Notes under the pieces: model-generated
Database searches by the model: none
The model's input: only the letters and a program-made list of their open reading frames with translations
Told to the model about the DNA's origin: nothing
Program-made: the position numbers and the translations under genes
Source: a bacterium
GTDB taxonomy: Bacteria > Omnitrophota > Gorgyraeia > Zapsychrales > Zapsychraceae
Length of the DNA stretch: 64,000 bases
Direction: 5' to 3'
NCBI GenBank assembly: GCA_030429765.1
Contig: JAUIER010000003.1
Coordinates: 80,402-144,401, forward strand
In this document: piece by piece, positions 16,737 to 60,400 of the stretch
Layout of the letters: each line of letters begins with the position of its first letter
How positions within the stretch are numbered: position 1 is the first letter of the stretch

Positions 16737-18814
<2,078 letters not shown>

Positions 18815-19550: not shown

Positions 19551-19895
19551 ATGCGAATTTTCATTATGGTATTGGCCATCGTCCTCGCCGCGGCGGGCGG
19601 CGGATTGGCGTACCGTTACTACCAACAAGCTGCCGTGTCGGTGGGTGAGTTAGAAGAAGAGCGTTACAAACGCATGGTCGCTGAGGAAGACTACGAAAAA
19701 CAGCGCCAGAAGGCCAAAAGCCTGGAAAGCAAGCTCAAGAAATCAGAACAGCGCGTCACAAATCTGGAAAACAAAGTCGAAAAGATTTCAGCCATCAATG
19801 ATGACATGAAATTACGTCTTGAGAAGTCAGCCCAGATTCAGAAGCAGCTTGAGCAAAAAATCATTGAGTTCGAGGCATCATCTCCACAAATCTAG
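19551..19895 (+). CDS. Small membrane-anchored coiled-coil protein (hypothetical)
   Basis: N-terminal TM MRIFIMVLAIVLAAAGGGLAY followed by a charged, heptad-like K/E-rich region. Confidence 0.5.
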   Translation: MRIFIMVLAIVLAAAGGGLAYRYYQQAAVSVGELEEERYKRMVAEEDYEKQRQKAKSLESKLKKSEQRVTNLENKVEKISAINDDMKLRLEKSAQIQKQLEQKIIEFEASSPQI

Positions 19896-19925: not shown

Positions 19926-19952
19926 TTTATATGATGGGGGATGAAAATCCCC
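19926..19952 (+). terminator. Rho-independent terminator
   Basis: GGGGGA-tgaaaa-TCCCCC stem-loop followed by ATTTTATTT. It lies between the coiled-coil gene and the real uppS start. Confidence 0.6.
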
Positions 19953-19972
19953 CATTTTATTTGTCAGATACC

Positions 19973-20713
19973 ATGAACAAAGATATTGATAAAGGTAAAA
20001 TTCCACAGCATGTCGCCATCATCATGGACGGCAACGGCCGCTGGGCGCAGCAACAGAATCTCTCGCGGACACAGGGGCATATCGCCGGGGTCAAGCGGGT
20101 CGAAGACATTATTGACTATGCGCAGGAGATCGGTATCAAAGTTTTGACACTCTATACGTTCTCATCGGAAAATTGGAACCGCCCGACCAATGAAGTGTCA
20201 ACGATCATGAATATCGTCACGGCCGTGCTTAACAGAAAGACCAAAAAGCTCAAAGGCGATAATATGCGCTTTGGTATGATCGGACGCGAAGACGGGCTGC
20301 CTGAATCGGCCTTGAACGCCATCAAGATGGTCATCAATGAGACCAGCAAGAATACCGGGTTGCTGATCAATCTGGCCTTTAACTACGGGGCCCGGCAGGA
20401 GATCCTCGACGCCATAAAGTCAATTTCCCAATCAGTTAAGGATGGTAAGCTCACGACGGATGATATTACCGAAGAGTTGTTCAGCCGGTCGCTATACACC
20501 AAGGACTTACCGGATCCTGATTTGCTGATTCGGACGTCCGGTGAAAAGCGGATCAGTAATTTTCTTTTGTGGCAATTATCGTATGCGGAGTTCTATTTTA
20601 CAGAGAAATTTTGGCCGGACTTTGATATTGCTGAATTCGAGAACGCACTGATGGATTATCAAAACCGGCAGCGAAGATTTGGTAACTTAATCTCTCAATC
20701 CCTGAATGAATAA
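19973..20713 (+). CDS. uppS: Undecaprenyl-diphosphate synthase (cis-prenyltransferase)
   Basis: ...HVAIIMDGNGRWA... and the ...ERISNFLLWQ...YAEFYF... motifs. Start moved to the ATG at 19973 because the ORF-track start (19931) would place the upstream terminator hairpin inside the gene. Confidence 0.88.
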   Translation: MNKDIDKGKIPQHVAIIMDGNGRWAQQQNLSRTQGHIAGVKRVEDIIDYAQEIGIKVLTLYTFSSENWNRPTNEVSTIMNIVTAVLNRKTKKLKGDNMRFGMIGREDGLPESALNAIKMVINETSKNTGLLINLAFNYGARQEILDAIKSISQSVKDGKLTTDDITEELFSRSLYTKDLPDPDLLIRTSGEKRISNFLLWQLSYAEFYFTEKFWPDFDIAEFENALMDYQNRQRRFGNLISQSLNE

Positions 20714-21524
20714 AGATCGTTGGTTTAGTTCAACCGTAATGATATCGCTGTCCATTGGCGCGCTCCTGTTTGACTGGGTGTTCCTGCTGGTATTGCTGGC
20801 GTTGACGATCGGCGGGTTGTATGAATTTTTTTATCTGATCAAGAAAAAAGGCATTCCAATTTATAGTTACACCGGAATTGCCATCGGCACGGTGATACCG
20901 TTGCTGGCCTTTTTTCAGATCGAGCCCACGAAAAAGTGGGATCTGTTCTTTATAGCCATGGCCCTGCTGACCATTTTCGGGCTGCAGTTGATGCGTAACG
21001 ACAATCGTAACGCGATCGTCGGTATTTCAACCACATTATTCGGTATTTTATATGTTTCATGGTTTTTCAGCTTTTTAGTTGAGATCAAGAATTTGCTGCC
21101 GGAGACACCATGGGCGGGTGAGAAGCTAGTCGGCTTTTTGCTGTTGGTTACCAAGTGTGGGGATATGGGGGCGCTGCTCATTGGGAAAAAATATGGCAAG
21201 AAGTTACTCGTTCCCAAGATCAGTCCCAAGAAGACGGTTGCCGGCGCATTTGGCAGTACCGCTTTCAGTGTGATTGCGGCTTTGCTGGCCTACAAACTGA
21301 TCCCGGCCCAATTGAATCTGCCGCTGTGGCATGTGGCTTTGATGGGTGCGATCTTCGGTGGTTTAGGGCAGCTAGGGGATATGTCAGAATCCATGATCAA
21401 ACGGGATTGCGGTGTGAAGGACTCCGGCAAGATGCTACCGGCCTTGGGCGGCGCATTGGATGCCATTGACAGCTTGCTGTTCTCGGCGCCGGTTTTCTAC
21501 TTTTATATTATTTCGTTATTGTAA
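20706..21524 (+). CDS. cdsA: Phosphatidate cytidylyltransferase
   Basis: Polytopic; ...SPKKTVAGAFGSTAFSVIAA... and C-terminal ...GGALDAIDSLLF are CdsA signatures. Confidence 0.85.
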   Translation: MNKDRWFSSTVMISLSIGALLFDWVFLLVLLALTIGGLYEFFYLIKKKGIPIYSYTGIAIGTVIPLLAFFQIEPTKKWDLFFIAMALLTIFGLQLMRNDNRNAIVGISTTLFGILYVSWFFSFLVEIKNLLPETPWAGEKLVGFLLLVTKCGDMGALLIGKKYGKKLLVPKISPKKTVAGAFGSTAFSVIAALLAYKLIPAQLNLPLWHVALMGAIFGGLGQLGDMSESMIKRDCGVKDSGKMLPALGGALDAIDSLLFSAPVFYFYIISLL

Positions 21525-21534
21525 CAGGATAGTT

Positions 21535-22689
21535 ATGGCGAGAAAGAATGTAGTCGTTTTGGGGTCGACCGGTTCGATCGGTATCAACACCCTGAAGGTC
21601 GTAGAGCGGTATCCTAAAGAATTTAATGTCGTCGGATTAAGCGCGTACAATAACGTCAAGCTCCTTGAGAAACAGATACAGCAGTTCCGTCCCAAATTTG
21701 TAGCGGTCAATTCAAAGGGGCGGGAGTATTTTCGAGATCGATTGAAGGCGCCGACAAAAATGTTGTCCGTTGATCAAGACCTCGAAGAGTTGGTCGCGCG
21801 GACAGACGTTCATGCCGTTGTCATCGGTATGCGGGGGGCGGCCGCCTTAAAGCCTTTTATCAGCGCGGTTCGAAATGGAAAGATCGTGGCGCCGGCGAAT
21901 AAGGAAGCGCTGGTGATTGCCGGAGAGATCATTATGAATTCGGCCCGGAGAAACAAGGCCACGGTGATCCCGGTTGACAGTGAACAAAGCGCTATCTTTC
22001 AATGTTTGCAAGGACAGAACCGACGGGAGCTCAAACGTGTGTTGCTGACTGCATCAGGCGGGACCCTGTTGAACGTTCCGGTCAGCCAATTTAATGAGTT
22101 GACGGTAGAGGAAATCCTCAAGCATCCGCGCTGGAAGATGGGACAAAAGATTACGGTCGATTCCGCCACGCTGATGAATAAGGGGTTTGAGTTTATCGAA
22201 GCGCTGCGTTTGTTTGACCTAGACATCGATCAGATTGAGGTTGTTATTCATCCGGAGGCGATCATTCATTCGATGGTGGAATACATGGATGGATCGATCA
22301 TCGCGCAGCTAGGTGTCACCGACATGCGCATTCCGATTCAATATGCACTGACCTATCCCAAGCGGTTGGATGTCGGCTTAAAGCCGATGGATTTTGCCAA
22401 GTTGGGATCATTGAATTTTCAGCGGCCGGATTACAAAAAGTTTCCGTCGTTGTCGTTATGTATTGACGTGGCCCGACAGGGAGGCACTTCTCCCAGTGTG
22501 TTGAATGCCGCGGATGAAGAGGCCGTGGAGGCCTTCTTAAAGCATGACATCCGGTTTTCGGATATTTATCCCGCCGTCGAAAAGATTGTTCGCCGGCATA
22601 AGGTTCAGCCGAAGCCAAACCTTAACCAAATTCTCGCGGCCGATCAGTGGGCCCGTGAGGAGACAAGAAAGGTAATATATAAGTTATGA
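21535..22689 (+). CDS. dxr: 1-deoxy-D-xylulose 5-phosphate reductoisomerase
   Basis: MARKNVVVLGSTGSIGINTLKVV... The ORF-track 5' extension overlaps cdsA; the ATG at 21535 follows the cdsA stop. Confidence 0.9.
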   Translation: MARKNVVVLGSTGSIGINTLKVVERYPKEFNVVGLSAYNNVKLLEKQIQQFRPKFVAVNSKGREYFRDRLKAPTKMLSVDQDLEELVARTDVHAVVIGMRGAAALKPFISAVRNGKIVAPANKEALVIAGEIIMNSARRNKATVIPVDSEQSAIFQCLQGQNRRELKRVLLTASGGTLLNVPVSQFNELTVEEILKHPRWKMGQKITVDSATLMNKGFEFIEALRLFDLDIDQIEVVIHPEAIIHSMVEYMDGSIIAQLGVTDMRIPIQYALTYPKRLDVGLKPMDFAKLGSLNFQRPDYKKFPSLSLCIDVARQGGTSPSVLNAADEEAVEAFLKHDIRFSDIYPAVEKIVRRHKVQPKPNLNQILAADQWAREETRKVIYKL

Positions 22690-24077
22690 TCGCTTTAGAC
22701 AGTATCCTGGGTGGATTTCAGAGCACGGCCGTGTTTATCGCCGTCCTGAGTATCCTGATCGTCGTGCATGAGTGGGGACATTTTATCACCGCCAAGTTGC
22801 AGGGCATCAAAGTCCATGAGTTTGCATTGGGATTTGGTCCGACGCTGTGGGCCAAGGAATACAATGAAACCAACTACATGCTGAAGCTTTTTCCGTTAGG
22901 CGGGTATGTTCGTATGGCGGGAGATGAGCGTGACAAATGCACCGGTGCTCCCTACGAGTTTTACAGTAAGTCGCCGGGGCAGCGGGCCGCGGTTGTTTTT
23001 AACGGACCATTGGTGAATTTTGTCCTGGCCTACTTTAGTTTTGTCCTGGTGTTTATGCTGGGCTATCCGGGAATGTCGACACAGATCACCGAGATCGTCA
23101 GTGATGGACCGGCAGTCGCGACATCCCTGCAGGCCAAGGATGAGGTGGTCGCGATCAACGGCAAGAAAATCTATGGATGGATGCATCTCGAACGCCTGTT
23201 GGAAGGGGAAAGCGTGGAGCCGATTGAGGTCACGGTGAACCGCGATGGTCAACAAATTTCCGCAACGGTCAATCCGACGATTGAGGAAAGGCCTAACCTG
23301 TTAGGTGTACCGACGATGTACCGGAATATCGGGATCGGATTCCTGCCGAACAAAGTCGGCGGTGTGGTCGAGGGGTATCCTGCCGATAAGGCCGGATTGA
23401 AGATGGAGGACGTCATCACCGAGATCGATGGTCAGAAGATTACCAATTGGATCTCGCTGCAGGAGGCCATCAGCAATTCCAAGGGCGCGACGATCAATAT
23501 CAAAGGCATCAGTGATGGTCAGCCATTTGAAAAAAATATTGAGCCGGTTATCGATATCAAGGAAGACGCGGACGGCAACAAGGTCGAAACGCGCAAGATC
23601 GGGCTGGGTCCCATGCAGGACTTTGGCAGCTTTAAATTTTCATTTGTGGAATCGCTTTACTACAGCTGGGATGAGCTGGCCTACATTACCCGTCTTACCT
23701 ACAAGTCGCTTTATCTGATGGTGCGTGGGACGGTCAAAGCCAAGGATTCAGTCACCGGACCGGTCGGAATCTTTTACATTGTGAAGGGCGCGGCCGAGGC
23801 CGGAATGGCGCATTTGTTATTCATTCTAGGTGTCATTAGTGCTAGTTTGGCGATCTTCAATCTGCTGCCGATGCTGCCGCTGGACGGCGGACATCTGACG
23901 CTGTTGGCCATTGAGAAGATACGGGGTAAACCGCTGCCGGCGAAGGTTGATGATTTTGTGGCGCGCATCGGTTTTTCATTTATTATTCTGCTCGCGCTTT
24001 TCGTGTTTTACAACGATTTTGCCAATTTCGGCATCTTTGATGGAATCAAGAATCTTTTTTCTAAAATAACGGGATAA
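22686..24077 (+). CDS. rseP: Site-2 zinc metalloprotease (regulator of sigma-E protease), PDZ-containing
   Basis: ...VVHEWGHFITAKLQGIKV (HExxH), a central PDZ region and C-terminal ...LNLLPMLPLDGGH... Confidence 0.88.
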   Translation: MIALDSILGGFQSTAVFIAVLSILIVVHEWGHFITAKLQGIKVHEFALGFGPTLWAKEYNETNYMLKLFPLGGYVRMAGDERDKCTGAPYEFYSKSPGQRAAVVFNGPLVNFVLAYFSFVLVFMLGYPGMSTQITEIVSDGPAVATSLQAKDEVVAINGKKIYGWMHLERLLEGESVEPIEVTVNRDGQQISATVNPTIEERPNLLGVPTMYRNIGIGFLPNKVGGVVEGYPADKAGLKMEDVITEIDGQKITNWISLQEAISNSKGATINIKGISDGQPFEKNIEPVIDIKEDADGNKVETRKIGLGPMQDFGSFKFSFVESLYYSWDELAYITRLTYKSLYLMVRGTVKAKDSVTGPVGIFYIVKGAAEAGMAHLLFILGVISASLAIFNLLPMLPLDGGHLTLLAIEKIRGKPLPAKVDDFVARIGFSFIILLALFVFYNDFANFGIFDGIKNLFSKITG

Positions 24078-24101
24078 CTTCTTTAAACAAGAGGGACAAA
24101 C

Positions 24102-25370
24102 ATGGCATCCGAAGATTTAAGAGAAAAAGTAAACAGGTATATGATCAACAACACGGAGTTCTTGAAGGTCAAGGACACCATGAACGAGGATCAACTGAGG
24201 ATGTTCGTCAATCGGGCCATCGAGGATATGATGGACGAGAAAAATATCGAAATCCCCTTTGAACAGCGGGCGGAGCTGATCAAGTCGCTGGTCAGCGCGG
24301 TGATGAGCTTAGGGCCATTGCGTCCACTGATGGAAGACGAGACGATCACCGAGGTCATGATCAATGGATGCGATACCATTTACATCCAGCGTTACGGAAA
24401 GATTGAGAAGGTTGATATCAAGTTTGACAGCAACCAGCACTTAGCCCACACGGTGCAGAAAATTCTTGCCGGTTCGCAGAGTAATAAGCGTGTTGATGAG
24501 TCATCGCCGTATGTTGATTTCTCTTTGCCTGACGGATCACGGGTCAACGTTATTCTTCCGCCATGTTCGACGATGGGGCCGGTCGTTACGATCCGAAAAT
24601 TTAAGGATGATATCGGAACTGTTGAGCATTTGCTGGATGTTAAGGAGCTCAACGAGGAGATGGCCACGTTGCTAATTGCCGCGATGAAGGCCAAATTCAA
24701 TGTTATATTTTGCGGGGCGACGGGTTCGGGTAAGACAACCTGTATGAATGTGTTTTCGACACATATTCCAGAAGAAGAACGGATTATCACGATTGAGGAT
24801 ACCCCGGAGTTAAATCTCCGTCAGGATCATGTTGTGTCGCTGCAAACCAAGCCGGCTAACATCGAAGGCAAGGGTGAGATTACCATGGCTGAGTTGTTTA
24901 CCAATTCGCTTCGTATGCGTCCGGACCGGATCATCATTGGTGAGATTCGTGGCGAGGAAATGCTGGATTTAATCCAGTCGATCAGTTCCGGTCACAGTGG
25001 GTCGCTCGCTATCGTTCACGCGGAGTCACCGCTGGATTGTTTTGACCGGATGGTGACCATGATGCTGCTCACGGGAATTCGATTGAGCACCCAGGAGATC
25101 CGCCGTCAGGTGGCCCGAGCGGTGGATATTATTGTGCACATCGAGCTTTTCAATGACGGGGTTCGCCGCATCCAGAACATCACTGATATTGTCTGGAATG
25201 ACGAGAAGAAGGAAGTGGAGTTGGTCGATATATTCCGGTTTGATCAAACTGGACGGATTGTCGACGGGATCGTTGAGGGTGACTGGACCAAGAATCGAAA
25301 GCCGCCGTCATTTATGTCTAAATTTGCCAAGCACAGGGTGGAACTCCCGGAAGGATATTTCGATAAGTAA
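24102..25370 (+). CDS. CpaF/TadA/VirB11-family secretion ATPase (orphan in this window)
   Basis: ...VDESSPYVDFSLPDGSRVNVILPP...IRKF...; Walker A GATGSGKTT; Walker B ...ITIEDTPEL; His box GHSGSLAIVHA. Confidence 0.8.
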   Translation: MASEDLREKVNRYMINNTEFLKVKDTMNEDQLRMFVNRAIEDMMDEKNIEIPFEQRAELIKSLVSAVMSLGPLRPLMEDETITEVMINGCDTIYIQRYGKIEKVDIKFDSNQHLAHTVQKILAGSQSNKRVDESSPYVDFSLPDGSRVNVILPPCSTMGPVVTIRKFKDDIGTVEHLLDVKELNEEMATLLIAAMKAKFNVIFCGATGSGKTTCMNVFSTHIPEEERIITIEDTPELNLRQDHVVSLQTKPANIEGKGEITMAELFTNSLRMRPDRIIIGEIRGEEMLDLIQSISSGHSGSLAIVHAESPLDCFDRMVTMMLLTGIRLSTQEIRRQVARAVDIIVHIELFNDGVRRIQNITDIVWNDEKKEVELVDIFRFDQTGRIVDGIVEGDWTKNRKPPSFMSKFAKHRVELPEGYFDK

Positions 25371-25372
25371 TC

Positions 25373-26566
25373 ATGTATTGGTCTAAATATTTTATACCCA
25401 CACTCAAGGAAACGCCCGGCGGAACCGAGGCCATCAGTCATCAACTGCTGTTGCGGGCCGGTCTGGTGCAGATGCTCACGTCCGGGGTCTATTCGTATCT
25501 TCCGCTCGGATTACGCGTACTGTCGAATATCGAAAATATCATTCGTGAGGAGATGAACGCAGCGGGCGCAAATGAATTGTTATTGCCCAGTCTGCATCCG
25601 CTGGATATATGGAAGCAGACGGGACGGGATGAAACGCTCAAGGACGTGATGATTTCGTTTAAAGACGGCAAGGGACGCGATATGTGTCTGGGGCCTACGC
25701 ATGAAGAAATTATTACGGATGTTGTTCGGAATCACGTGCAGTCTTATCGACAGCTGCCGGTGACGCTGTATCAGATTCAGACCAAGTTCCGCGATGAACT
25801 GCGGCCGCGGTTCGGCATTGTGCGGGCGTGTGAGTTTATCATGAAGGACGCTTACAGCTTTGATCGTGATGTCGAAAGCATGCAAAAAAATTATCAGATC
25901 ATGTACGAGGCGTATCAGAAAATTTTCAAGCGGCTCGAGCTGGATGTGGTGATTGTTGAGGCCGATTCCGGCGCGATGGGCGGAGATATTTCCCACGAGT
26001 TTATGGTCCCCGCGGCGATTGGTGAGGATGAGGTCGAGGTCAACGGTCAAAAGCAGGTGGCGATGGAGCTGGGTCATATTTTTCAATTAGGGACCAAATA
26101 CAGCCAATCGCTCGGCGCTAATTTTCTGGATGAAAACGGCAAGAGTCAGCCGATTATTATGGGATGTTATGGTATCGGCGTCAGCCGGGTAATCGCCGCG
26201 ATTATCGAGGTGATGCACGACGAGAACGGTATTATTTGGCCGTCACAGGTCGCGCCGTTTCAGGTCGAACTCCTGCCGATTTATAAATCGGAATCCGATG
26301 AGGCCATGCAGCTGGCGCGGCAGTGTTATGACGAGTTAACGGCTGCCGGAGTTGATGTTTTATGCGACGATCGCGATGAGACCGCTGGTAAAAAGTTTAA
26401 AGACGCTGATTTGATCGGTATTCCGTTGAGGGCAACGTTCGGCAAGCGAAATTTGGCGGAGGGTAATGTCGAGCTGAAGTTTCGTAAGTCAGGTGAGACG
26501 GTGATGATTGACAAATCATCGGCAGCTGCGAAGATCCTGGATGTTCTCAAGCAAGGCCATGCATAA
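25373..26566 (+). CDS. proS: Prolyl-tRNA synthetase, short form lacking the INS editing domain
   Basis: Class II motifs ...FRDELRPRFGIVRACEFIMKDAYSF... and ...GCYGIGVSRVIAAIIE... The 397-aa length is about 170 aa shorter than INS-containing bacterial ProS. Confidence 0.85.
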   Translation: MYWSKYFIPTLKETPGGTEAISHQLLLRAGLVQMLTSGVYSYLPLGLRVLSNIENIIREEMNAAGANELLLPSLHPLDIWKQTGRDETLKDVMISFKDGKGRDMCLGPTHEEIITDVVRNHVQSYRQLPVTLYQIQTKFRDELRPRFGIVRACEFIMKDAYSFDRDVESMQKNYQIMYEAYQKIFKRLELDVVIVEADSGAMGGDISHEFMVPAAIGEDEVEVNGQKQVAMELGHIFQLGTKYSQSLGANFLDENGKSQPIIMGCYGIGVSRVIAAIIEVMHDENGIIWPSQVAPFQVELLPIYKSESDEAMQLARQCYDELTAAGVDVLCDDRDETAGKKFKDADLIGIPLRATFGKRNLAEGNVELKFRKSGETVMIDKSSAAAKILDVLKQGHA

Positions 26567-27014
26567 AGAGCTTCTCGTTCATATTCGGCCGCTGGTGGAA
26601 CACGCGTTAACCGAACATCTGGTGGATCTAGTGGACATGACGATTAAATCGGATGGCCGGGGATACAACATTGAGATCCTGGCGGATAAACCTGAAGGCG
26701 GCATTACGATTGACGTGTGCGCGGAGTTAAACCGGGTCATCGGAGATCAGCTTGAACAGGATGTGCTCCTGGACCGGGCGTTTACGGTGAATGTCAGTTC
26801 CCCCGGTGTGGATCGTCCTTTGCGAATCGCCAAGGATTTTCGACGGGTAATCGGACGGGCGGTGCGCGTTCATTTGAATGACAAAATTGAGGACAAGATT
26901 GAACATATGGGTACTGTAAAGACAGTAACGGACGATATGGTAACGTTGGAAGCCAAGGCTGGATTGATTGACATACCCTTTATAAAAATTAACAAGGCCA
27001 TTCAGGTCATCTAG
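26559..27014 (+). CDS. rimP: Ribosome maturation factor RimP
   Basis: MHKELLVHIRPLVEHALTEHLVDLVDMTIKSDGRGYNIEILADKP...VSSPGVDRPL... Immediately upstream of nusA-infB. The start overlaps the proS end. Confidence 0.8.
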   Translation: MHKELLVHIRPLVEHALTEHLVDLVDMTIKSDGRGYNIEILADKPEGGITIDVCAELNRVIGDQLEQDVLLDRAFTVNVSSPGVDRPLRIAKDFRRVIGRAVRVHLNDKIEDKIEHMGTVKTVTDDMVTLEAKAGLIDIPFIKINKAIQVI

Positions 27015-27038
27015 ACAGAACAAGAGAGAGGTAAGAAG

Positions 27039-28271
27039 ATGGAAAGTAGTGAATTGCTAACTATTTTGGAACAACTGGAGCGCGACAAGGGAATCGACAA
27101 GGATGTTCTGATTGAAGCGGTAGAAGCCGCCGTGGCTTCGGCCGCCAAAAAATTGTGGACCGTCGACAAGGAGCAGGATGTCACGGTCAAGCTTGATAAA
27201 ATGACCGGTAAACTCACCGCCTACGCCGGTGACGAAGAGATCCGCTCCGGTGAGTTCGGCCGTATCGCCGCGCAAACGGCCAAGCAAGTGGTCATCCAAA
27301 AGATTCGTGAGGCGGAAAAAGACGTTGTTTACGAAGAGTATCAAAAGCGGATTGGTGAGATCATCAGCGGAAGCGTTTATCGTTTTGAACGCGGTAACAT
27401 CATTATTGATTTAATCAAGTCAGAAGCGATTGTTCCTCGACGTGAACAGTCATCCAAGGAAGAGTTTAAACAAGGTGACCGGATCCGGGCCTATGTGTTG
27501 GACGTAAAGCGTGAAAACCGCGGTCCGCAAATTATTCTTTCCCGCGCGCATCCGCAGTTTGTGAAACGCCTGTTTGAGCTGGAAGTTCCCGAAATTCTGG
27601 AAGGGATCGTTGAGATCAAGTCGATTACGCGGGACGTAAGTGAGCGGACCAAGATCGCTGTACATTCCAAAGACGAGAAGGTGGATTCGGTTGGCGCGTG
27701 CGTTGGTATGCGTGGAAGCCGGGTGAAAAATATCGTCAATGAGCTGCAGGGCGAGAAGATCGACATCGTACGGTATTCACCGGATATCAAGGAATACATC
27801 CAGGCGGCGTTATCTCCCGCGGAAATTTCTCAGATTCAGCTGAACTTCGATGAGAAGAAGGCCAATATCATTGTGGCCGATGATCAGTTGTCGTTGGCCA
27901 TCGGTAAGCATGGTCAAAATGTCCGTTTGGCCAGTCAGCTGGTGGGTTGGGAGCTGGATTTGTTCTCGTTTGATCAGTGGAAGGAATATCAGGACAAACT
28001 CGACGGTGAAGAAGCACCCGCCGAGACTGACGCCGAGGCAACGGAGGAGTACGAAGAAGAGGAAGTCATTGAAGAGGTCACCATCGCGGACCTTTCCGGT
28101 GTGGGTGAAAAGATGATCGCCGAGCTTGAGGAGAAAGGGCTTGGAACGCTGGATGTGATTGCCGAAGCAAGTGTTGATGATTTGACACAGATCAAAGGAT
28201 TAGGTAAAATCAAGGCCCAAAAAATGATTGACGAGGCGAAACAAATACTCGAGGAATGTGAAGAAGAATAG
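27039..28271 (+). CDS. nusA: Transcription termination/antitermination factor NusA
   Basis: S1 and KH regions (...GMRGSRVKNIVNEL.GEKIDIV...) plus a C-terminal acidic repeat. Confidence 0.92.
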   Translation: MESSELLTILEQLERDKGIDKDVLIEAVEAAVASAAKKLWTVDKEQDVTVKLDKMTGKLTAYAGDEEIRSGEFGRIAAQTAKQVVIQKIREAEKDVVYEEYQKRIGEIISGSVYRFERGNIIIDLIKSEAIVPRREQSSKEEFKQGDRIRAYVLDVKRENRGPQIILSRAHPQFVKRLFELEVPEILEGIVEIKSITRDVSERTKIAVHSKDEKVDSVGACVGMRGSRVKNIVNELQGEKIDIVRYSPDIKEYIQAALSPAEISQIQLNFDEKKANIIVADDQLSLAIGKHGQNVRLASQLVGWELDLFSFDQWKEYQDKLDGEEAPAETDAEATEEYEEEEVIEEVTIADLSGVGEKMIAELEEKGLGTLDVIAEASVDDLTQIKGLGKIKAQKMIDEAKQILEECEEE

Positions 28272-28298
28272 CGAGTAGTTAATAGAGAAAAGAGATAT

Positions 28299-30725
28299 AT
28301 GAAAGTATCCGAACTGGCCAAAGAGCTAAAAACAAATGATGAAACCATCCTGGCTACGCTCAAGAATTTGAAGCTGAAGGCGAAGGATAGTGATCAAGAT
28401 CTGAATGTCGCGGTTGTATCCGTTCTGAAAAGCGCGTTCAAAAAGGGGAATATCGTCAAGGTTGAAACCCCTAAGGCGCCGAAGAAGCGGGCGACCAAGA
28501 AAGCCGTCGCGGACAAAGAACCCGAGTCAACGACCAAAAAGAAGGCCGTGAAGAAGAAAGCGGCCGTTAAGAAAAAAGTGGTCAAGAAGAAGGCGGCATC
28601 CACGACCAAGTCAGAGGACACGGAAAAGGAAGCTGACAAGCCTCGCAAGCGCGTTGTCAAACGCAAGGTCAAGAAGGTGGTCCGAAAGGCCGTCAAAAAG
28701 GCGGATGACACGGACAAGGCCGCAACAACCAAGAAGACGGCGGCCAAGAAAACTGACGCCAAACCAGCGAAGGTCGAGGTCCCGGCCAAGCCCAAGAAGA
28801 AGGCTCAGGAGCCGGTTATCACGCTCAAACCACTTTCCCGCAAGCGTCGAAAGTCCTATAAAGACGACCGCAGGGATCAGCCGAGCGGCAATGACATGCT
28901 AAATGTCGAACCGGCCGCGGCGGATGCGTCGACGGCAACAGCGGCCGAACCGGTTTTTAATGAGAATCTCCCCGAGATCGAAGTCAAGGTGCCGATCACG
29001 GTCAAGGAATTTGCCACGACGATTCAGCAGAAGCCGAGCGTTGTTTTAACGCGCCTCATGAAGATGGGGATGCTGGCTCACATCAATCAGAGCCTCGGTG
29101 AGGAATTAGTCCGTAAATTGACGTTGGAGTTTGGATATAATCTGGCCAAGATTCGGACACAGGAAGAAGTTGTCATTGACGATCACAAGGTTGAGGAGGA
29201 CGACGCGGCTGAACTAAAATCACGAGCGCCGGTGATTACATTTATGGGACACGTTGATCACGGAAAAACGTCCTTGCTTGACCGAATCCGTTCATCGAAG
29301 ATCACCGACCGTGAGCACGGCGGGATCACACAGCACATCGGGGCCTATTCCGTGTCGATGCCCAAAGGGCGGATCACATTGCTCGACACGCCTGGTCACG
29401 AGGCGTTTACGGCGATGCGCGCGCGTGGCGCGCACATTACAGATATTGTTGTTCTGGTTGTAGCCGCGGACGAAGGGATTATGCCGCAGACCGAAGAAGC
29501 AATCGATCACGCCCGGGCCGCGGGTGTCCCGATTGTCGTTGCCTTAAATAAGATGGACCGTCCCGGTGCCAATCCGGACAAAGTCAAGCAGCAGCTGGCC
29601 GAGCATGATCTGGCCTCTGAAGACTGGGGTGGCAAGACAGTTGTGGTCGGTGTGTCGGCGATGACCGGAGAAGGAATTGATGAGCTTTTAGAATTGATCC
29701 TGCTGGAATCCGAATTGCTTGAACTCAGGGCTAATCCGAACAAACGGGCGACAGGGCTAGTTGTCGAAGCGCATCTCAGTCAAGGCAAAGGAACAGTTAC
29801 GACATTGATCGTGCAGAGTGGAACATTAAAGGAAGGCGACTTCCTGATCATGGGACCGTATTACGGCAAGGTCAAGGCCATGTTTGATGATCACGGACGT
29901 GCGATCAAGGAAGCCGGTCCGTCCATGCCCGTCGAGATCCTGGGGATTTCCAATGTCCCTGGAGCCGGTGAGATCTTTTATGTCGTCGAAGATGAACGAC
30001 AGGCCAAAGAGATATCCACTGCGCGTCTGGAGAAGATCAAGAACAAAAAGATGCAGGCATCGTCGGCCATCTCGCTTGATGATTTGTATTCGCAAATTCA
30101 AGAGGGTGCGATTAAGGAGCTGAATGTCGTGTTAAAAGCGGATGTGCAGGGATCGCTCGAGGCGCTGAAGGATTCCTTGGAGAAAATCCCAAGCGACAAG
30201 GTTAAGATCAAGTTCATTCACAGCGGCGTCGGTGAGGTCAACACATCGGATGTGCTTTTGGCTGTGGCGTCGAAGGCGATTATCATCGCGTTTCATGTGG
30301 GGATCAATCCCAAGGCCAAGAAGGCGCTGGAGCAGGATCCCGTCGAGGTTCGCGAGTATCGGATTATCTACGACGCTGTCAACGACATGCGTCAGGCGCT
30401 GGAAGGTCTACTGGAAGCCAAGAAGAAAAAGAACTACTTTGCCAAGGTGGAGATCCGTCAGGTCTTCAAATTATCCAAACAGGGGATTGTCGCCGGGTGT
30501 TATGTGACCAAAGGCCGGGTCAAGCGAAAGGCCGAAGTGGATTTGGTCCGTGACGGCGAGGTGATTCATTCCGGCAAGATTGGTTCTTTAAAACGTTTCA
30601 AGGAAGACGTGAAGGAAGTCACCGAAGGTATGGAATGCGGGGTCGTCCTGGAAGGTTTTGACAAATATGAAGTCGGCGACATGCTGGAAGTCTATGACGT
30701 TGAAATCATTTCGCAGAAACTCTAA
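28299..30725 (+). CDS. infB: Translation initiation factor IF-2
   Basis: K/A-rich N-terminal region; GTPase motifs [24 protein letters not shown]. Confidence 0.93.
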
Positions 30726-30770
30726 GGGCGAAAACGTAAAAGTCTAAAGTAATCTTTTCCAAACATTCTC

Positions 30771-31751
30771 ATGAAAAAAACCGTTTTTAGCGCAATGCGT
30801 CCGACCGGTAAACTGCACTTGGGCCACCTGGTTGGTGCGTTGCATAACTGGACGGAACTTCAAAAATCTCACCAATGTATTTTTTCGATTGTGGACTGGC
30901 ACGCCTTGATGGGCGAGTACGAACAAAGCGCGGCCATTCGCGGTAATGTACTGGACATGGCGCTTGATTGGCTGGCCTGCGGCATCGATCCCAAGCAGTC
31001 GGTTATTTTTGTTCAGTCGGACGTACCCGAACATCTTGAACTTCAGATGATCTTTTCCTGCATCACCCCGCTGGGCTGGCTTGAGCGTAATCCCACATAT
31101 AAAGAGCAATTACGCGAGATTGAAAAGCGTGATCTTCAAACCTACGGCTTTCTGGGATATCCGGTGCTGCAGGCGGCGGACATTCTATTGTATAAAGCCA
31201 ATGCCGTGCCGATCGGCGAGGATCAATTGCCGCATCTGGAGCTGACCAGGGAGATCTCCCGCCGTTTTAATCACATTTTTAAGACCGAATTCTTCGAGGA
31301 TTGTGAGGCGATCCTGACACAGACACCGCGATTGCTAGGACTGGACGGCCGAAAAATGAGCAAAAGCTACAACAATGCCATCAACCTTAGTGATACGCCC
31401 GAGGAGATCCAGAAAAAGGTCAAGACCATGTTTACGGATCCCAAGCGTCTGCGGCTCAAGGACCCCGGTCATCCCGAGGACTGTAACGTATACAGTTATT
31501 ATAAAGTTTTTGCCCCGCAGCAGTGTGAGGCGGTATATAATTGGTGTACGGCCGCCGAGAAGGGATGCACGGACTGTAAGAAGATATTTGCTGATCATCT
31601 GATCGACCATCTCAGTGAAATAAGTGCAAAACGTGAAAGTCTCAGTAAGGATCGTGATACAATAAAGGATATTCTTCAGGAAGGCCGAAAAAAGGCGCAG
31701 GCGATTGCCCGCCAAACCATCGAAGAGGTCAAAGAGGTTATATTTGCATGA
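30771..31751 (+). CDS. trpS: Tryptophanyl-tRNA synthetase
   Basis: ...TGKLHLGHLVGAL... (HIGH) and ...KMSKSYNN... (KMSKS). Confidence 0.9.
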   Translation: MKKTVFSAMRPTGKLHLGHLVGALHNWTELQKSHQCIFSIVDWHALMGEYEQSAAIRGNVLDMALDWLACGIDPKQSVIFVQSDVPEHLELQMIFSCITPLGWLERNPTYKEQLREIEKRDLQTYGFLGYPVLQAADILLYKANAVPIGEDQLPHLELTREISRRFNHIFKTEFFEDCEAILTQTPRLLGLDGRKMSKSYNNAINLSDTPEEIQKKVKTMFTDPKRLRLKDPGHPEDCNVYSYYKVFAPQQCEAVYNWCTAAEKGCTDCKKIFADHLIDHLSEISAKRESLSKDRDTIKDILQEGRKKAQAIARQTIEEVKEVIFA

Positions 31752-32557
31752 GCTATAAACTAAGACTTGAGGTATTCGAAGGTCCGCTTGATCTTTTGCT
31801 TTATTTGATCAAGAAGAATGATATCGATATCAAGGACATCCCGATTGTGGAGGTCACCGAACAGTATATGGAGTATATCGATATGATGAAGATGCTGGAC
31901 CTGGATATCGTCGGCGATTTTCTGGTCATGGCAGCGACCTTGATCCAGATCAAGTCAAAGATGCTGTTACCGCCTGAGGTCTCCGAAGAGGATGAGGAAG
32001 AAATCGATCCGCGCGATGAGCTGGCCCGTCGACTACTGGAGTACAAAAGATTCAAGGAGATCGCCAATACGCTTGAAGAGCACGAGATTCATCGAAAAGA
32101 TTACTTTCCGCGCATTCTCGACGAGGAATCCCTGGATCAGATCAAGAAAGACTCGAAGGAGGTTATCTTTGAGGCCAATTTGTTTGATTTGATCAATGCC
32201 TTTTCCGAGGCTCTCAAACGTACGCCTGAAGAGATTATTCATGAGATTGTCCAGGAAGAGTTTACTGTCGAGGACAAGATACATTATATCCTGCACGAGC
32301 TGATCAATACGGAAGAGCTTTGCGTGAATCGTTTATTTGAGAAGTGCCGTTCCAAGCCGGAAATAATTGTTTCCTTTATCGCCGTACTTGAATTGATCCG
32401 GCTTAAGGAAATCAAGGTTTCCCAGAAGGATATTTTCGGTGACATCAATATCACCCGCAACAAAGAACCAATTGATCGGGATGCCGTGGCTCCCGAGCCT
32501 GAGCCCCAACCTGAAGCGTCAGTTGAGGGCGATCTCGAAGTCGAAGAGCAACTTTAA
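31748..32557 (+). CDS. scpA: Segregation and condensation protein A
   Basis: ...FEGPLDLLLYLIKKNDIDIKDIPIVEVTEQY...; C-terminal acidic tail. Confidence 0.85.
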   Translation: MSYKLRLEVFEGPLDLLLYLIKKNDIDIKDIPIVEVTEQYMEYIDMMKMLDLDIVGDFLVMAATLIQIKSKMLLPPEVSEEDEEEIDPRDELARRLLEYKRFKEIANTLEEHEIHRKDYFPRILDEESLDQIKKDSKEVIFEANLFDLINAFSEALKRTPEEIIHEIVQEEFTVEDKIHYILHELINTEELCVNRLFEKCRSKPEIIVSFIAVLELIRLKEIKVSQKDIFGDINITRNKEPIDRDAVAPEPEPQPEASVEGDLEVEEQL

Positions 32558-32565
32558 AATATGTT

Positions 32566-33597
32566 ATGGACGAACATCGTAAAATCATTTTCAGCCAGGA
32601 AACCGAAGACGATGAAGTCTACAGTTTGTCACTGCGTCCCGCCTTACTTGATGACTTTGTAGGTCAGCAAGATCTCGTCGAGAATCTTAAAATATCTATA
32701 CAGGCCGCTAAACTGCGCGGCGAACCGCTGGAGCATTTATTGTTTTCCGGACCGCCGGGGCTGGGGAAGACCAGTCTGGCGAATATCGTCGCGAATGAAA
32801 TGGGATCGCGTATCACCGTTACATCGGGACCGGCGATTGACCGGGCGGGAGATTTGATCGGGATTCTGACGGGTTTGGAAAAGGGGGATATCTTATTTAT
32901 TGACGAGATCCATCGATTATCCAAGGTGGTGGAGGAATTTTTATACCCGGCGATGGAAAATTTCAAGATCGATTTTATTGTCGATAAAGGTCCGTACGCC
33001 AAGACCATAAATTTTAACCTCAAGCCGTTCACATTGATCGGGGCGACGACCCGTAGCGGATTGTTGGCCTCACCGCTAAGAGACCGCTTCGGGATCTTTC
33101 ATCACCTGGAGTTCTATAACACTGAAGAGTTGGGACGCATCGTGTCGCGTTCCGCCGAGAAACTGGGGATGGAGTTGACCGACGATGCATCGATTGAATT
33201 GGCGCAGCGCTCGCGCGGGACACCACGAATCGCTAATCGATTGCTGCGGCGGGTGCGGGATTATGCGCAGGTCAAAAGCAACAGCAGCTGTGCGACGCGT
33301 GAAACGGTTCATGAGTCCATGCGCACCCTGGGGATTGATCCCCGAGGACTGGATGACGCCGACCGCCGGCTGCTCAAGGTCATCAAAGAACATTACAAGG
33401 GCGGCCCCGTCGGTATTGAAACGTTGGCCGCGACCTTAAACGAAGAGGTGGATACGCTTGTCGATGTCATCGAGCCGTATCTGCTGAAGATTGGTTTTCT
33501 AAACCGAACTCCGCGTGGGCGAGAGCTCACCAGTTCTTCCCGCCAGCATATCGAGCAATCGAACCGTCCGGAACAATCTTTCAACGACATAGATTAG
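32566..33597 (+). CDS. ruvB: Holliday junction branch-migration ATPase RuvB
   Basis: ...LLFSGPPGLGKTSLANIVANEMG...FIDEIHRL... Confidence 0.92.
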   Translation: MDEHRKIIFSQETEDDEVYSLSLRPALLDDFVGQQDLVENLKISIQAAKLRGEPLEHLLFSGPPGLGKTSLANIVANEMGSRITVTSGPAIDRAGDLIGILTGLEKGDILFIDEIHRLSKVVEEFLYPAMENFKIDFIVDKGPYAKTINFNLKPFTLIGATTRSGLLASPLRDRFGIFHHLEFYNTEELGRIVSRSAEKLGMELTDDASIELAQRSRGTPRIANRLLRRVRDYAQVKSNSSCATRETVHESMRTLGIDPRGLDDADRRLLKVIKEHYKGGPVGIETLAATLNEEVDTLVDVIEPYLLKIGFLNRTPRGRELTSSSRQHIEQSNRPEQSFNDID

Positions 33598-57477: not shown

Positions 57478-60400
57478 ATGTTGATTTCAATCAAACGGCA
57501 TTTCCGTCATCCGTTGTTTTGCGCGTTGGTGTCGATGCTGACATGTCAGTTATCATTTGCTGTCCCTGGCGTTGCGTCTACGCAAGCCTCGCAGGGAGTG
57601 GCTCTGCCTGAACCCGGCACGCTGGTGATGCCGAGCGCCGATTTTTATGCCCCGGTCCTCAAAGGGGTTCAAATCCATCCCGACCAGCCGTTTCATTTTG
57701 AATTTATTGTCGATCAGGGCGATCAGTCGATTTCCTTAAGCCAACTGGAGGCCGAGTCGTATCGCTTGATCAAATATTTTATGGCCGCCCTGGCCGTGCC
57801 TGAGCAGGACATGTGGGTGAACTTATCGCCCAATGATCATGATCGGGCGATCCCCGACAAATTCGCCCTGACCGCTATGGGACGTGATCTGCTCGCGCAG
57901 GATTATCTGCTCAAACAATTATCGGCGTCGATGATGTATCCCGAACATCGGCTTGGTGAAGATTTCTGGCAACGCGTGCGGCACTTGGCCCATCAACGCT
58001 TGGGCGTGACCGACATTCCCGTCAACACATTCAATAAAGTCTGGATCGTACCCGAACGGGCCGTGGTGTATCAAGACGGATATACCGCGTATGTGTCCGA
58101 AGGCCGGCTCAAGGTCATGCTGCAGTCGGACTATCAAGCCAGCGCATCCAGCCCGATGGGCGCGGGCAATCCCGACGATTCCACCGACCGGTTAGCCCAG
58201 GACATTTATCGTGAAGTGATTATTCCGGAACTGGAGCGAGAGGTGAATACCGGTCGACAGTTTGCCCGTTTGCGCCAGATCTATCATTCGTTGATTCTCG
58301 CGACGTGGTATCGCGAAGTCCTTGAGGACAGTTTGATCAATCAAGTGTATGCCGGACAGAATAAGATCCATGGCATTGAGATCGACGATCCCCGGGCCAA
58401 AGACGCGATCTATCAGCAATACATGGACGCGTTTCGCAAGGGCGTCTACAACTACATCCGCGAAGACTATGATCAATTGAAGGATCAGGTGATCCCGCGG
58501 CAGTACATGTCGGGCGGGATGCAGATCGTGCCGCGGATAGAGATTACCGACGACGCGCGCTCCGTCCGCACGCGCGGAGATCTGGCGATGGTCTCCACGC
58601 AACTGAATCTGCGCGGTGCCAACCGCACGATTGAGATCGCGGCGGATCTCGACGACAGTATCTTTGCCGGGATGCGAAAGAACGGCCGGCCCAAGGTTCA
58701 GTTAACGCATGCGGATCACGCCGAGCTCAAGGGATACCGTCCGGATGGAGAGACGGTCACACTTTTTACCTCACTACGTCAGCGGGTATACGGCCTGGAA
58801 ATTTCCGATGAGGGCGAACTCACGCACGTTTATCCTAACAATAAAAAAGACAAACCGGTGGCTTGGGCCTGGATTCGTGACGACGCCGGCCGGCGGACCG
58901 GAATTGTCGTCGGAGACAAGCGGACGCACGCGTCGCTGGGATACGGAACAAGTGCGGTCAAGATTAACGGGTGGATCGACACGCCGATTATAGCAAGTCA
59001 GCAGCGGCAGGACGCGGCCTTGATCCGCATCGGTCCACAGGCCCTGGGTAAACGACAACTCTTTGCGGTGTTGCCGCCGGATGCGGCCGGCGAAACATTG
59101 GCGGTGCGCTATGAAGACGGTTTTCCGACGGCAGTTCGTCTGAGAGACGGGACCGTTGTTCCTGTTGGTCTGATCCGGAATCAGTATAATCAGGTGATCA
59201 AAGCCACGAACGGTTCGGCCGGTTTTGTTAAGCCGGATCGTGAGACAGCCACCAGCTACGAAAATATCCGAACGGATGCAGAGGGCATAGCGCGTTTGGG
59301 ATTCCGTCTCGAGCGAGTGGCCGACGGGGCCGGCTGGGCCAGTCTCCTGGTTGACCAATCAGTGGTGATCGCTCATGATATTTTTGATCAGCCGCGTCAC
59401 CAAACCTACGGACACGTGATCCGCAATCACCATGATGTCATCATTGCCGCCGCGTGGCGGGAACCCGACCAAGACCAACGGGAGGTAAACCCCAAGCCGT
59501 TGATGATCGTTCGCGATCTCCAAACACACCGGCCGAAGTACTCGGCGGCACCAACCAAATTCAAAGACACCGGCGACGCGATCGTGACCGGACGTCGTTT
59601 ATCGAAACACGGCAAGATTTATATCGGCGGACATTCGCTGAGTTTGGGGGCGACGTATGCCGATGCGCCGGTGGAATTGCTATGGCTGCCCAGCCAGGGT
59701 TATCTGCTGGTCGATGTCTTAAGTGAACGTGATCGTGAGGCGTTTGTGTTTGACTTGAATCGTGACGAAACCGTCACCGCCGAACAGCTAACTCTCGTCG
59801 ACAAATACCTGTCTGAGCTTGGGCTGGAATGGTATCTGGATCCGGCAGAGAAGGCGTATCGTTATGATCTCATCAATGAGTTGATGTCGGATCCGTTGTT
59901 CGCACAGCTGAATTTAAGATTATTTTCAACGCATCCGGCGGATTTACAGACCATTCAGTCTCAGTTGACTGTGCGCCGTCACATGCCGGTCAGGATTTGG
60001 GATCAGGCCCTGGATATCGCCGCCCGACGGATCGATCAATATAAACGCGATTATCCCGATCAGGTCGTCAACGGCAAGATTCCGATGCGGATCAAGCAGT
60101 CGATCATTCGCGATGTGTCGGACGAGGCCTGGTTGATGATCAATGCCGAACGTCCGCTGACGGAGAGCCCATCGGCTCAAATCTTTGAATCGTCGTCAAA
60201 CGAAACCGATGCGGCCATGACCAGCGATGGACCCACGCGGGCTGATATCGAACGGCTGTTCAAGGCGATTCTGGAAATTTACCGGTCCTACGCCGACGGT
60301 GAATTGGAGGACTATCCCACGGCGATGCGCCGGCTGGAGGCATTGGCCGAGCAGACCGCGTCGAATCCGGTCCTGCAGAGTTTTGTCCATGACCGGAAGA

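Follow-up and report, generated by a model that had tools for sequence, protein, structure and literature searches.

A stand-alone secretion ATPase gene of the CpaF/TadA type lies between rseP and proS in a 64,000-nucleotide stretch of DNA from an Omnitrophota bacterium (contig JAUIER010000003.1 of assembly GCA_030429765.1; the whole stretch is called the window hereafter). The gene is biochemically ordinary, and what is unusual is its fixed housekeeping context. Its relatives at the same place fall into two deep clades, here called A (that of the window gene) and B. The gene is a conserved lineage feature and not a one-off oddity. The explanation that we favour, with a probability of roughly 45%, is that it is a vertically inherited, lineage-specific stand-alone paralog and that its product is a CpaF motor acting in trans on TadB/TadC-type platform proteins encoded elsewhere. 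The relatives are already known to NCBI under the generic name "CpaF family protein"; the lineage-specific stand-alone copy fixed beside proS appears to be new.

Sequence, fold, and motifs make the encoded protein a member of the CpaF/TadA family. It matches Pfam PF00437 (T2SSE) with an E-value of 2.3e-50. The top matches in a sequence search of the PDB are the Caulobacter crescentus CpaF entries 8RKD, 8RJF, and 9E24 (phmmer E 5e-85, query residues 37-394), and all others are far weaker, such as VirB11 (3e-37) and archaeal GspE/FlaI (about 1e-34 to 3e-34). AlphaFold2, given 20 relatives, produced a model with a mean predicted local distance difference test score of 82. When the PDB was searched with this model using Foldseek, CpaF again came first (TM 0.72 over 416 columns, E 3e-41), followed at a distance by archaeal GspE/FlaI (1e-26) and PilT (1e-14). 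Neither an extra domain nor a departure from CpaF was found. The C-terminal tail motif was considered as a clade-specific mark and rejected, since it is common to CpaFs generally.

The initial annotation described a CpaF/TadA-like ATPase with all catalytic boxes intact, a description that the Pfam and PDB matches bear out. The four boxes (Walker A, Asp, Walker B, and His) are invariant in a 20-sequence alignment of relatives and likewise in 162 CpaF-type sequences. Two further elements concern the contact with platform proteins. In C. crescentus CpaF, function is lost on mutation of D208 in Loop 8 and of E331/G332/S333/G334 in the central loop, and modelling puts both loops where CpaF meets the platform proteins CpaG/CpaH (PMC11300603). 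D132 of the window ATPase aligns with D208, and E255, G256, and G258 align with E331, G332, and G334. D132 and E133 are invariant in the 20-sequence alignment, D132 and E255-G256-K257-G258 are invariant in both stand-alone clades, and the Loop-8 Asp is present in 157 of the 162 CpaF-type sequences. By alignment, the window ATPase keeps both platform-contact elements, the Loop-8 Asp and the central E-G-x-G, and we predict that the gene encodes a functional hexameric motor ATPase of the CpaF/TadA type.

Comparison with related genomes shows a conserved lineage feature. The nearest database proteins are 63-78% identical to the window ATPase and are named Candidatus Omnitrophica/Omnitrophota CpaF-family proteins. 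In 22 of 22 related loci, the ATPase gene lies directly upstream of proS, with a gap of at most 85 nucleotides or an overlap, which is frequent; proS is the one neighbour constant across all of these loci. Relatives with ATPases 76% and 64% identical to that of the window share the same order from purA to queA, with the ATPase gene between rseP and proS. The view of the gene as an unusual orphan was therefore overturned. It had also been considered that the family might be routinely found at this position together with a known partner set. The synteny comparison confirmed the routine position, and a partner set was not found in it.

Clustering at 50% identity, in a library of 1.84 billion proteins, reduces clade A to one full-length representative and two fragments. 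The next single-domain match is P0134, which is 44% identical to the window ATPase and heads a second tight Omnitrophota group, clade B (62-82% identical internally). The two clades are about 43% identical to each other. The gene order in clade B is uppS-cdsA-dxr-rseP-ispG-ATPase-proS-rimP-nusA-infB-trpS-scpA-ruvB, with ispG inserted between rseP and the ATPase gene. The P0134-like group was considered as a Tad-locus paralog and rejected, since its rseP-ispG-ATPase-proS position is that of an ortholog in another order. According to Table S1 of Seymour et al., one named clade-A member belongs to Velamenicoccia/Zapsychrales and the named clade-B members belong to Velamenicoccia/Gygaellales/Profunditerraquicolaceae. 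The lineage evidence covers two orders of one class, Velamenicoccia (GTDB Koll11).

Of the 80 CpaF-type loci that a metagenome scan yielded, nine have the rseP/ispG-ATPase-proS synteny; none of the 71 CpaF loci outside the lineage has proS nearby. Among the nine are sequences intermediate between the clades: L018 and L019 share 58-62% identity with clade A and 44-49% with clade B, and L022 shares 51-54% with clade B. The rate of divergence of the ATPase is about that of its housekeeping neighbours. From the closest relatives through the more distant members of clade A to the clade-B loci, identity to the window falls from 76% to 64% and 42-44% for the ATPase, from 79% to 65% and 55-58% for ProS, from 71% to 63% and 48-50% for Dxr, and from 61% to 49% and 38-39% for RseP. 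In a neighbour-joining tree, clades A and B each received 200/200 bootstrap support. A further CpaF-like ATPase without tad neighbours, the stand-alone 419-residue protein P0143 (L016 6207-7466, GCA_030428825.1), is among the nearest relatives of the stand-alone clades in this tree; its gene adjoins those of a NosD/beta-helix protein and a methyltransferase.

Linkage to tadB and tadC (T2SSF), which is usual for the CpaF/TadA family, was not seen for the window ATPase. As a control, a T2SSF profile was built from 86 open reading frames (ORFs) directly downstream of the ATPase gene in 47 other metagenomic CpaF loci, and sampled members of this seed were confirmed as T2SSF by Pfam. The profile matched none of the 24 loci with Omnitrophota synteny (the window and overlapping contig copies counted). 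It matched 49 of 74 other CpaF loci, and most of the remaining 25 simply have no downstream flank. Within the window, no T2SSF, secretin, or recognisable tad-family gene was found by Pfam, in a scan that left Flp-sized ORFs (below about 114 residues) outside, and the T2SSF hidden Markov model (HMM) matched no ORF of at least 70 residues. Within the scope of these scans, the ATPase gene does sit alone among housekeeping genes, as had been claimed.

Omnitrophota genomes contain a second CpaF-type ATPase in a Tad-like module. In locus L059, the order is a Rotamase_2 peptidyl-prolyl isomerase (PPIase), RcpC, a secretin with a C-terminal TonB_C domain, and a 721-residue fusion of a ParA/MinD-like (TadZ-type) domain to CpaF; a second, short T2SSE ATPase, many small ORFs, and a TadE/G-like protein follow. 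The four-gene module is also present in the complete 1.82-Mb genome CP070807.1 and in other assemblies. Secretins bearing TonB_C were seen at L059 7281-8891, L098 8263-9891, L099 8331-9908, and L102 8241-9854, in every case with the Rotamase_2 PPIase and RcpC before them and a TadZ(ParA-like)::CpaF fusion of about 722 residues after them. The fusion family is large and is assigned to Omnitrophota by NCBI. Its CpaF part is 40-46% identical to the stand-alone groups and keeps Walker A and B, the Asp and His boxes, the Loop-8 Asp, and the EGxG loop, and so the idea that it is catalytically dead was rejected; the short second ATPase of the module has no Loop 8. In the neighbour-joining tree, the fusions form their own clade (198/200 bootstrap), separate from the stand-alone clades. 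Since the fusion has its own clade and an intact ATPase, the window gene does not encode the ATPase of the module but is a paralog distinct from it. A 474-520-residue protein encoded after the fusion was considered as a divergent platform protein and rejected, as it has no hydrophobic segments and gave no signal with the T2SSF HMM.

No T2SSF was found within 10 kb of the modules in L059, L098, L099, and L102-L107. The suggestion that a complete tad locus with its own ATPase would make the window gene a paralog was largely borne out, as the Tad-like module has a TadZ-fused CpaF of its own. Tad-type genes are dispersed in these genomes, which makes an ATPase gene unlinked from its platform normal there. 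Because neither ATPase is linked to T2SSF, linkage cannot assign an ATPase to a platform. The module matches a "type II secretion-like" locus that West-Roberts et al. report upstream of Omnitrophota giant genes, with the fusion as its "gspE", and the literature describes T2SS/Tad-like loci and GspF pairs adjoining giant genes in Omnitrophota.

Two observations were made on contigs of this survey. The module-carrying Omnitrophota contig L102 has, at 1-1010, a gyrA/topoisomerase IV subunit A gene with an intein bearing a LAGLIDADG endonuclease domain. Polypeptides of 1148-1605 residues with three to four tandem CpaF domains were also found (L101 1527-5003 in GCA_034417895.1, P0121, P0122, P0415, and P0462), two chains of which could form one hexamer. 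Downstream of the triple-CpaF gene of L101 come genes for two VWA proteins and for a TadB/TadC pair as well as TadE-like genes, on a contig whose G+C of 0.59 is unlike that of the Omnitrophota loci.

Under the favoured explanation, the stand-alone ATPase would probably be produced constitutively from the housekeeping block, in translational coupling with proS. It would most likely dock on a TadB/TadC-type platform via the Loop-8 Asp and the central EGxG loop. As in the standard CpaF mechanism, the hexamer would cycle ATP, and its changes of conformation would be passed on to a T2SSF-type platform whose genes lie elsewhere. ATP hydrolysis may then drive the assembly and/or retraction of Flp-type pili of a dispersed Tad-like apparatus, which could serve for attachment in these ultra-small, presumably host- or prey-attached bacteria. 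The stand-alone ATPase would work beside the TadZ::CpaF fusion and not in its place. The proposal of the initial annotation that the pilus components may be encoded elsewhere remains the best reading, with no tad partners nearby. In one survey, TadB/TadC/RcpA are given for 74 of 116 Velamenicoccia species (PMC10066038).

Several points weigh against this explanation. No partner of the stand-alone ATPase was found in the loci and searches made, and matching by accession proximity, by assembly or contig identity, and by G+C and tetranucleotides did not bring the stand-alone gene, the fusion, and T2SSF together in one genome. The module already has an intact CpaF-type ATPase, and some genomes also have the second short one; with a competent ATPase in the Tad-like module, a further motor is not obviously needed. 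In Caulobacter, one CpaF performs both extension and retraction (PMC6920026). Seymour et al. report Tad complexes as absent in some Velamenicoccia families and in some Profunditerraquicolaceae, the family of clade-B members. If the gene is kept in Tad-less genomes, a Tad-independent role is implied. The sheet "KO counts per genome" of the same study is unusable for copy number or co-occurrence: its available part holds only the value 1, even for KEGG orthology entries that are normally multi-copy, and looks like a presence/absence table, with K02283 in two genomes and off the list of one. The union of clades A and B appears in the neighbour-joining tree with a bootstrap of 30/200, and because this value is weak, the orthology of A and B rests mainly on synteny and the intermediates. 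Promoter and terminator scans of the window gave matches at chance level, so that operon transcription is argued from spacing.

Two other explanations are both unlikely, to a similar degree. The stand-alone ATPase could be the main, canonical TadA motor of a scattered Tad system, with the fusion serving localisation or assembly of the secretin module in the manner of TadZ/CpaE. It has the standard CpaF architecture and the platform-contact residues, its gene is as conserved as those of aminoacyl-tRNA synthetases, and the fusion is not favoured by linkage, since neither ATPase is linked to T2SSF. However, the CpaF part of the fusion keeps all motifs and looks equally competent, and it sits with RcpC and a secretin, the usual tad context. 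Alternatively, the stand-alone ATPase could power a non-Tad process, such as a minimal DNA-uptake system resembling type IV filaments, the export or handling of giant surface proteins, or another envelope process. The kept platform-contact residues argue for a partner of the T2SSF type, the protein adds no domain to CpaF and does not deviate from it, and CpaF-family members working without a platform protein are not known. Such a process would nevertheless fit a gene that has no linked tad genes in the 24 loci with Omnitrophota synteny or across the 64-kb window, the absence of Tad complexes reported by Seymour et al. for part of the lineages in which the clade occurs, the existence of P0143 outside the group, and an ORF of at least 2174 residues 32 kb downstream in the window. 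It is somewhat more doubtful still that Velamenicoccia run their Tad-like apparatus on two dedicated CpaF paralogs in place of one bifunctional motor, with the constitutively expressed stand-alone copy and the TadZ-fused one splitting the work as extension versus retraction or between two platform sets, or that the stand-alone copy was recruited to an essential non-pilus envelope or export process.

The position itself might reflect a functional tie to RseP proteolysis, to ProS, or to the NusA/IF2 genes, and not operon hitch-hiking. We regard this as very improbable. The ATPase-proS junction does not vary among the 22 loci, and the two genes often overlap, but the whole purA-to-queA block is collinear, so that any ancestral insertion would persist there, and the upstream neighbour varies by clade (rseP in A, ispG in B). 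Moreover, proS is near none of the 71 CpaF loci outside the lineage, and a biochemical link between T2SSE ATPases and prolyl-tRNA synthetase is not known. A gene recently inserted by horizontal transfer, a decaying remnant, or an artefact of annotation would explain the isolation from tad genes and nothing more. The conservation data have already refuted it for practical purposes: the gene has the G+C and skew of its surroundings, its frame and motifs are unbroken, and position and sequence are kept across two orders.

The features of the gene and its surroundings are collected in Table 1. The ATPase gene starts 24 nucleotides past the rseP stop and stops 2 nucleotides ahead of the proS start, and its placement between these two genes, as initially annotated, agrees with the models matched by both. 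ProS of the window lacks the INS editing domain, and its match to bacterial ProS models is accordingly split into two stretches; the ProS proteins of the relatives have 393-424 residues.

Table 1. Features of the stand-alone ATPase gene and of its neighbours (window positions)
Feature	Position	Strand	Basis and remarks
Coding sequence of the 422-residue stand-alone CpaF/TadA-type secretion ATPase	24102..25370	+	ATG-to-stop ORF, Pfam, PDB sequence search, AlphaFold model
Shine-Dalgarno-like AGAGGGA	24090..24096	+	5 nt before the ATG, within the 24-nt rseP-ATPase spacer; read from sequence
ATPase domains: N-terminal helical bundle (aa 1-78), N-terminal domain (~aa 79-180), RecA-like C-terminal domain (~aa 181-400), C-terminal tail			
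Loop 8, KRVDESSPY (aa 129-137)	24486..24512	+	Alignment to C. crescentus CpaF
Walker A / P-loop, GATGSGKTT (aa 205-213)	24714..24740	+	Alignments
Asp box, ERIITIEDTPEL (aa 226-237), holds the catalytic Glu	24777..24812	+	Alignments
Central loop, EGKG (aa 255-258)	24864..24875	+	Second predicted platform-contact element; alignment to CpaF E331-G332-S333-G334
Walker B region, RPDRIIIGEIRG (aa 273-284)	24918..24953	+	Alignments
His box, SGHSGSLAIVHAES (aa 296-309)	24987..25028	+	Alignments
rseP (site-2 protease), upstream neighbour	22686..24077	+	TIGR00054, E 4e-88
proS, 397 aa, INS editing domain absent	25373..26566	+	PRK09194, 573 bits, above cut-off
Tightly packed housekeeping block uppS-cdsA-dxr-rseP-ATPase-proS-rimP-nusA-infB-trpS-scpA-ruvB	19931..33597	+	ORFs, Pfam, NCBIfam

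The block from uppS to ruvB probably forms a single long transcription unit or a few of them, and it is the spacing that points to co-transcription of the ATPase gene with the housekeeping genes. Apart from short antisense overlaps, all listed window ORFs of at least 150 residues are on the plus strand, and nearly all of them were included in the Pfam scan. The large ORFs scanned are housekeeping genes or encode large proteins of unknown kind. Beyond the block, the window contains lipopolysaccharide-core glycosyltransferases, kdsA/kdsB, lptC/A/B, tig, clpP, serC, serA, purA, genes of an OmpA/Pal-like and a SpoIID-like protein, queA, tgt, trmD, rnhB, folD, polA, glgA, coaE, rho, prfA, prmC, an EPSP-synthase-fold enzyme, and trpG/D/C/F. 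The surroundings of the ATPase gene do not differ from the rest of the window in G+C or skew, and an Rfam scan of the window gave no match.

A terminator-like hairpin with a 10-bp stem followed by a T-run (19933..19956, plus strand) is the sole strong one on this strand close to where the block begins. Its position is that of the nominal uppS start, shortly ahead of the real one, and the Pfam match of uppS begins at residue 31. The hairpin probably both closes the pal-like unit before it and marks the start boundary of the uppS...infB block. Two conserved syntenic ORFs on the plus strand have no Pfam match, one of 258 residues (16737..17513) and one of 114 residues (19551..19895). The latter follows the OmpA/Pal-like gene in all clade-A relatives, among which it is 27-54% identical. 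The ORF of at least 2174 residues (57478..64000, plus strand) has a signal-peptide-like N-terminus and runs off the 3' end. Its single strong Pfam match is His_Phos_1 (aa 1986-2161). It resembles the large or giant ORFs of Omnitrophota, and upstream of it are the trp genes and a gene for a DUF2459 protein, not a Tad/T2SS-like locus.

Omnitrophota are abundant, uncultured, and ultra-small bacteria that are thought to be predators or parasites. Of the genomic arguments for such a lifestyle, Tad-like pili provide one of the main ones. Conservation at the level of a tRNA synthetase in an operon of essential genes places a filament motor in the core gene set of these lineages and not in an accessory adhesion island. 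Counting "TadA/CpaF" matches overestimates the number of Tad systems in Omnitrophota, and dispersed Tad genes cause cluster-based detectors to undercount Tad genes. If there are two or three CpaF-type motors per genome, these would contrast naturally with the situation in Caulobacter, where one CpaF is bifunctional. The accessible portions of the Omnitrophota literature on Tad genes (TadB, TadC, RcpA, gspD/E/F) do not mention a conserved stand-alone copy beside proS. Without a partner, the finding stays a well-defined lead and not a new mechanism.

Compared with known systems, the window ATPase belongs with CpaF, although no NCBIfam model matches it at its curated cut-off. The best NCBIfam score (275.5 bits against a cut-off of 373) is that of TIGR03819, the "helicase/secretion neighbourhood" TadA-family ATPase of Actinobacteria, but there are no helicase genes nearby. 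VirB11 (TIGR02788) has the second-best score, 219 bits against a cut-off of 250, and TrbB reaches 169 bits against 305. VirB11 structures match the window ATPase in the C-terminal domain only and less well than CpaF, and the type IV secretion genes virB4, virB6-10, and virD4 were not found in Pfam scans of the window ORFs of at least 150 residues. A VirB11/TrbB type IV secretion ATPase was ruled out by the scores below cut-off and by the type IV secretion genes not being nearby. PilB/PilT/GspE were ruled out as well, with E-values of 1e-8 to 1e-16 confined to the P-loop core, scores far under the cut-offs, and weaker fold matches.

Within the CpaF group, CpaF/TadA (KEGG K02283) usually shares its locus with tadB/tadC, tadZ, rcpA/C, and flp, whereas the window ATPase gene is found between rseP (or ispG) and proS. 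The TadZ::CpaF fusion of Omnitrophota shares with it the ATPase family, the intact motifs, the phylum, and the lack of linkage to T2SSF. It differs in its N-terminal ParA/MinD-like (TadZ) domain and in its position with RcpC and a secretin. Identity of the window ATPase to the other CpaF-type proteins compared is about 40-45%. The disordered N-terminus of about 80 residues that Caulobacter CpaF has is missing from the window ATPase, and in clade A the first hinge glycine of CpaF is replaced by Ser. Other features are shared with Caulobacter CpaF: the order of helical bundle, N-terminal domain, and RecA-like C-terminal domain is the same, and all catalytic boxes, the Loop-8 Asp, the EGxG loop, and the C-terminal tail motif are present.

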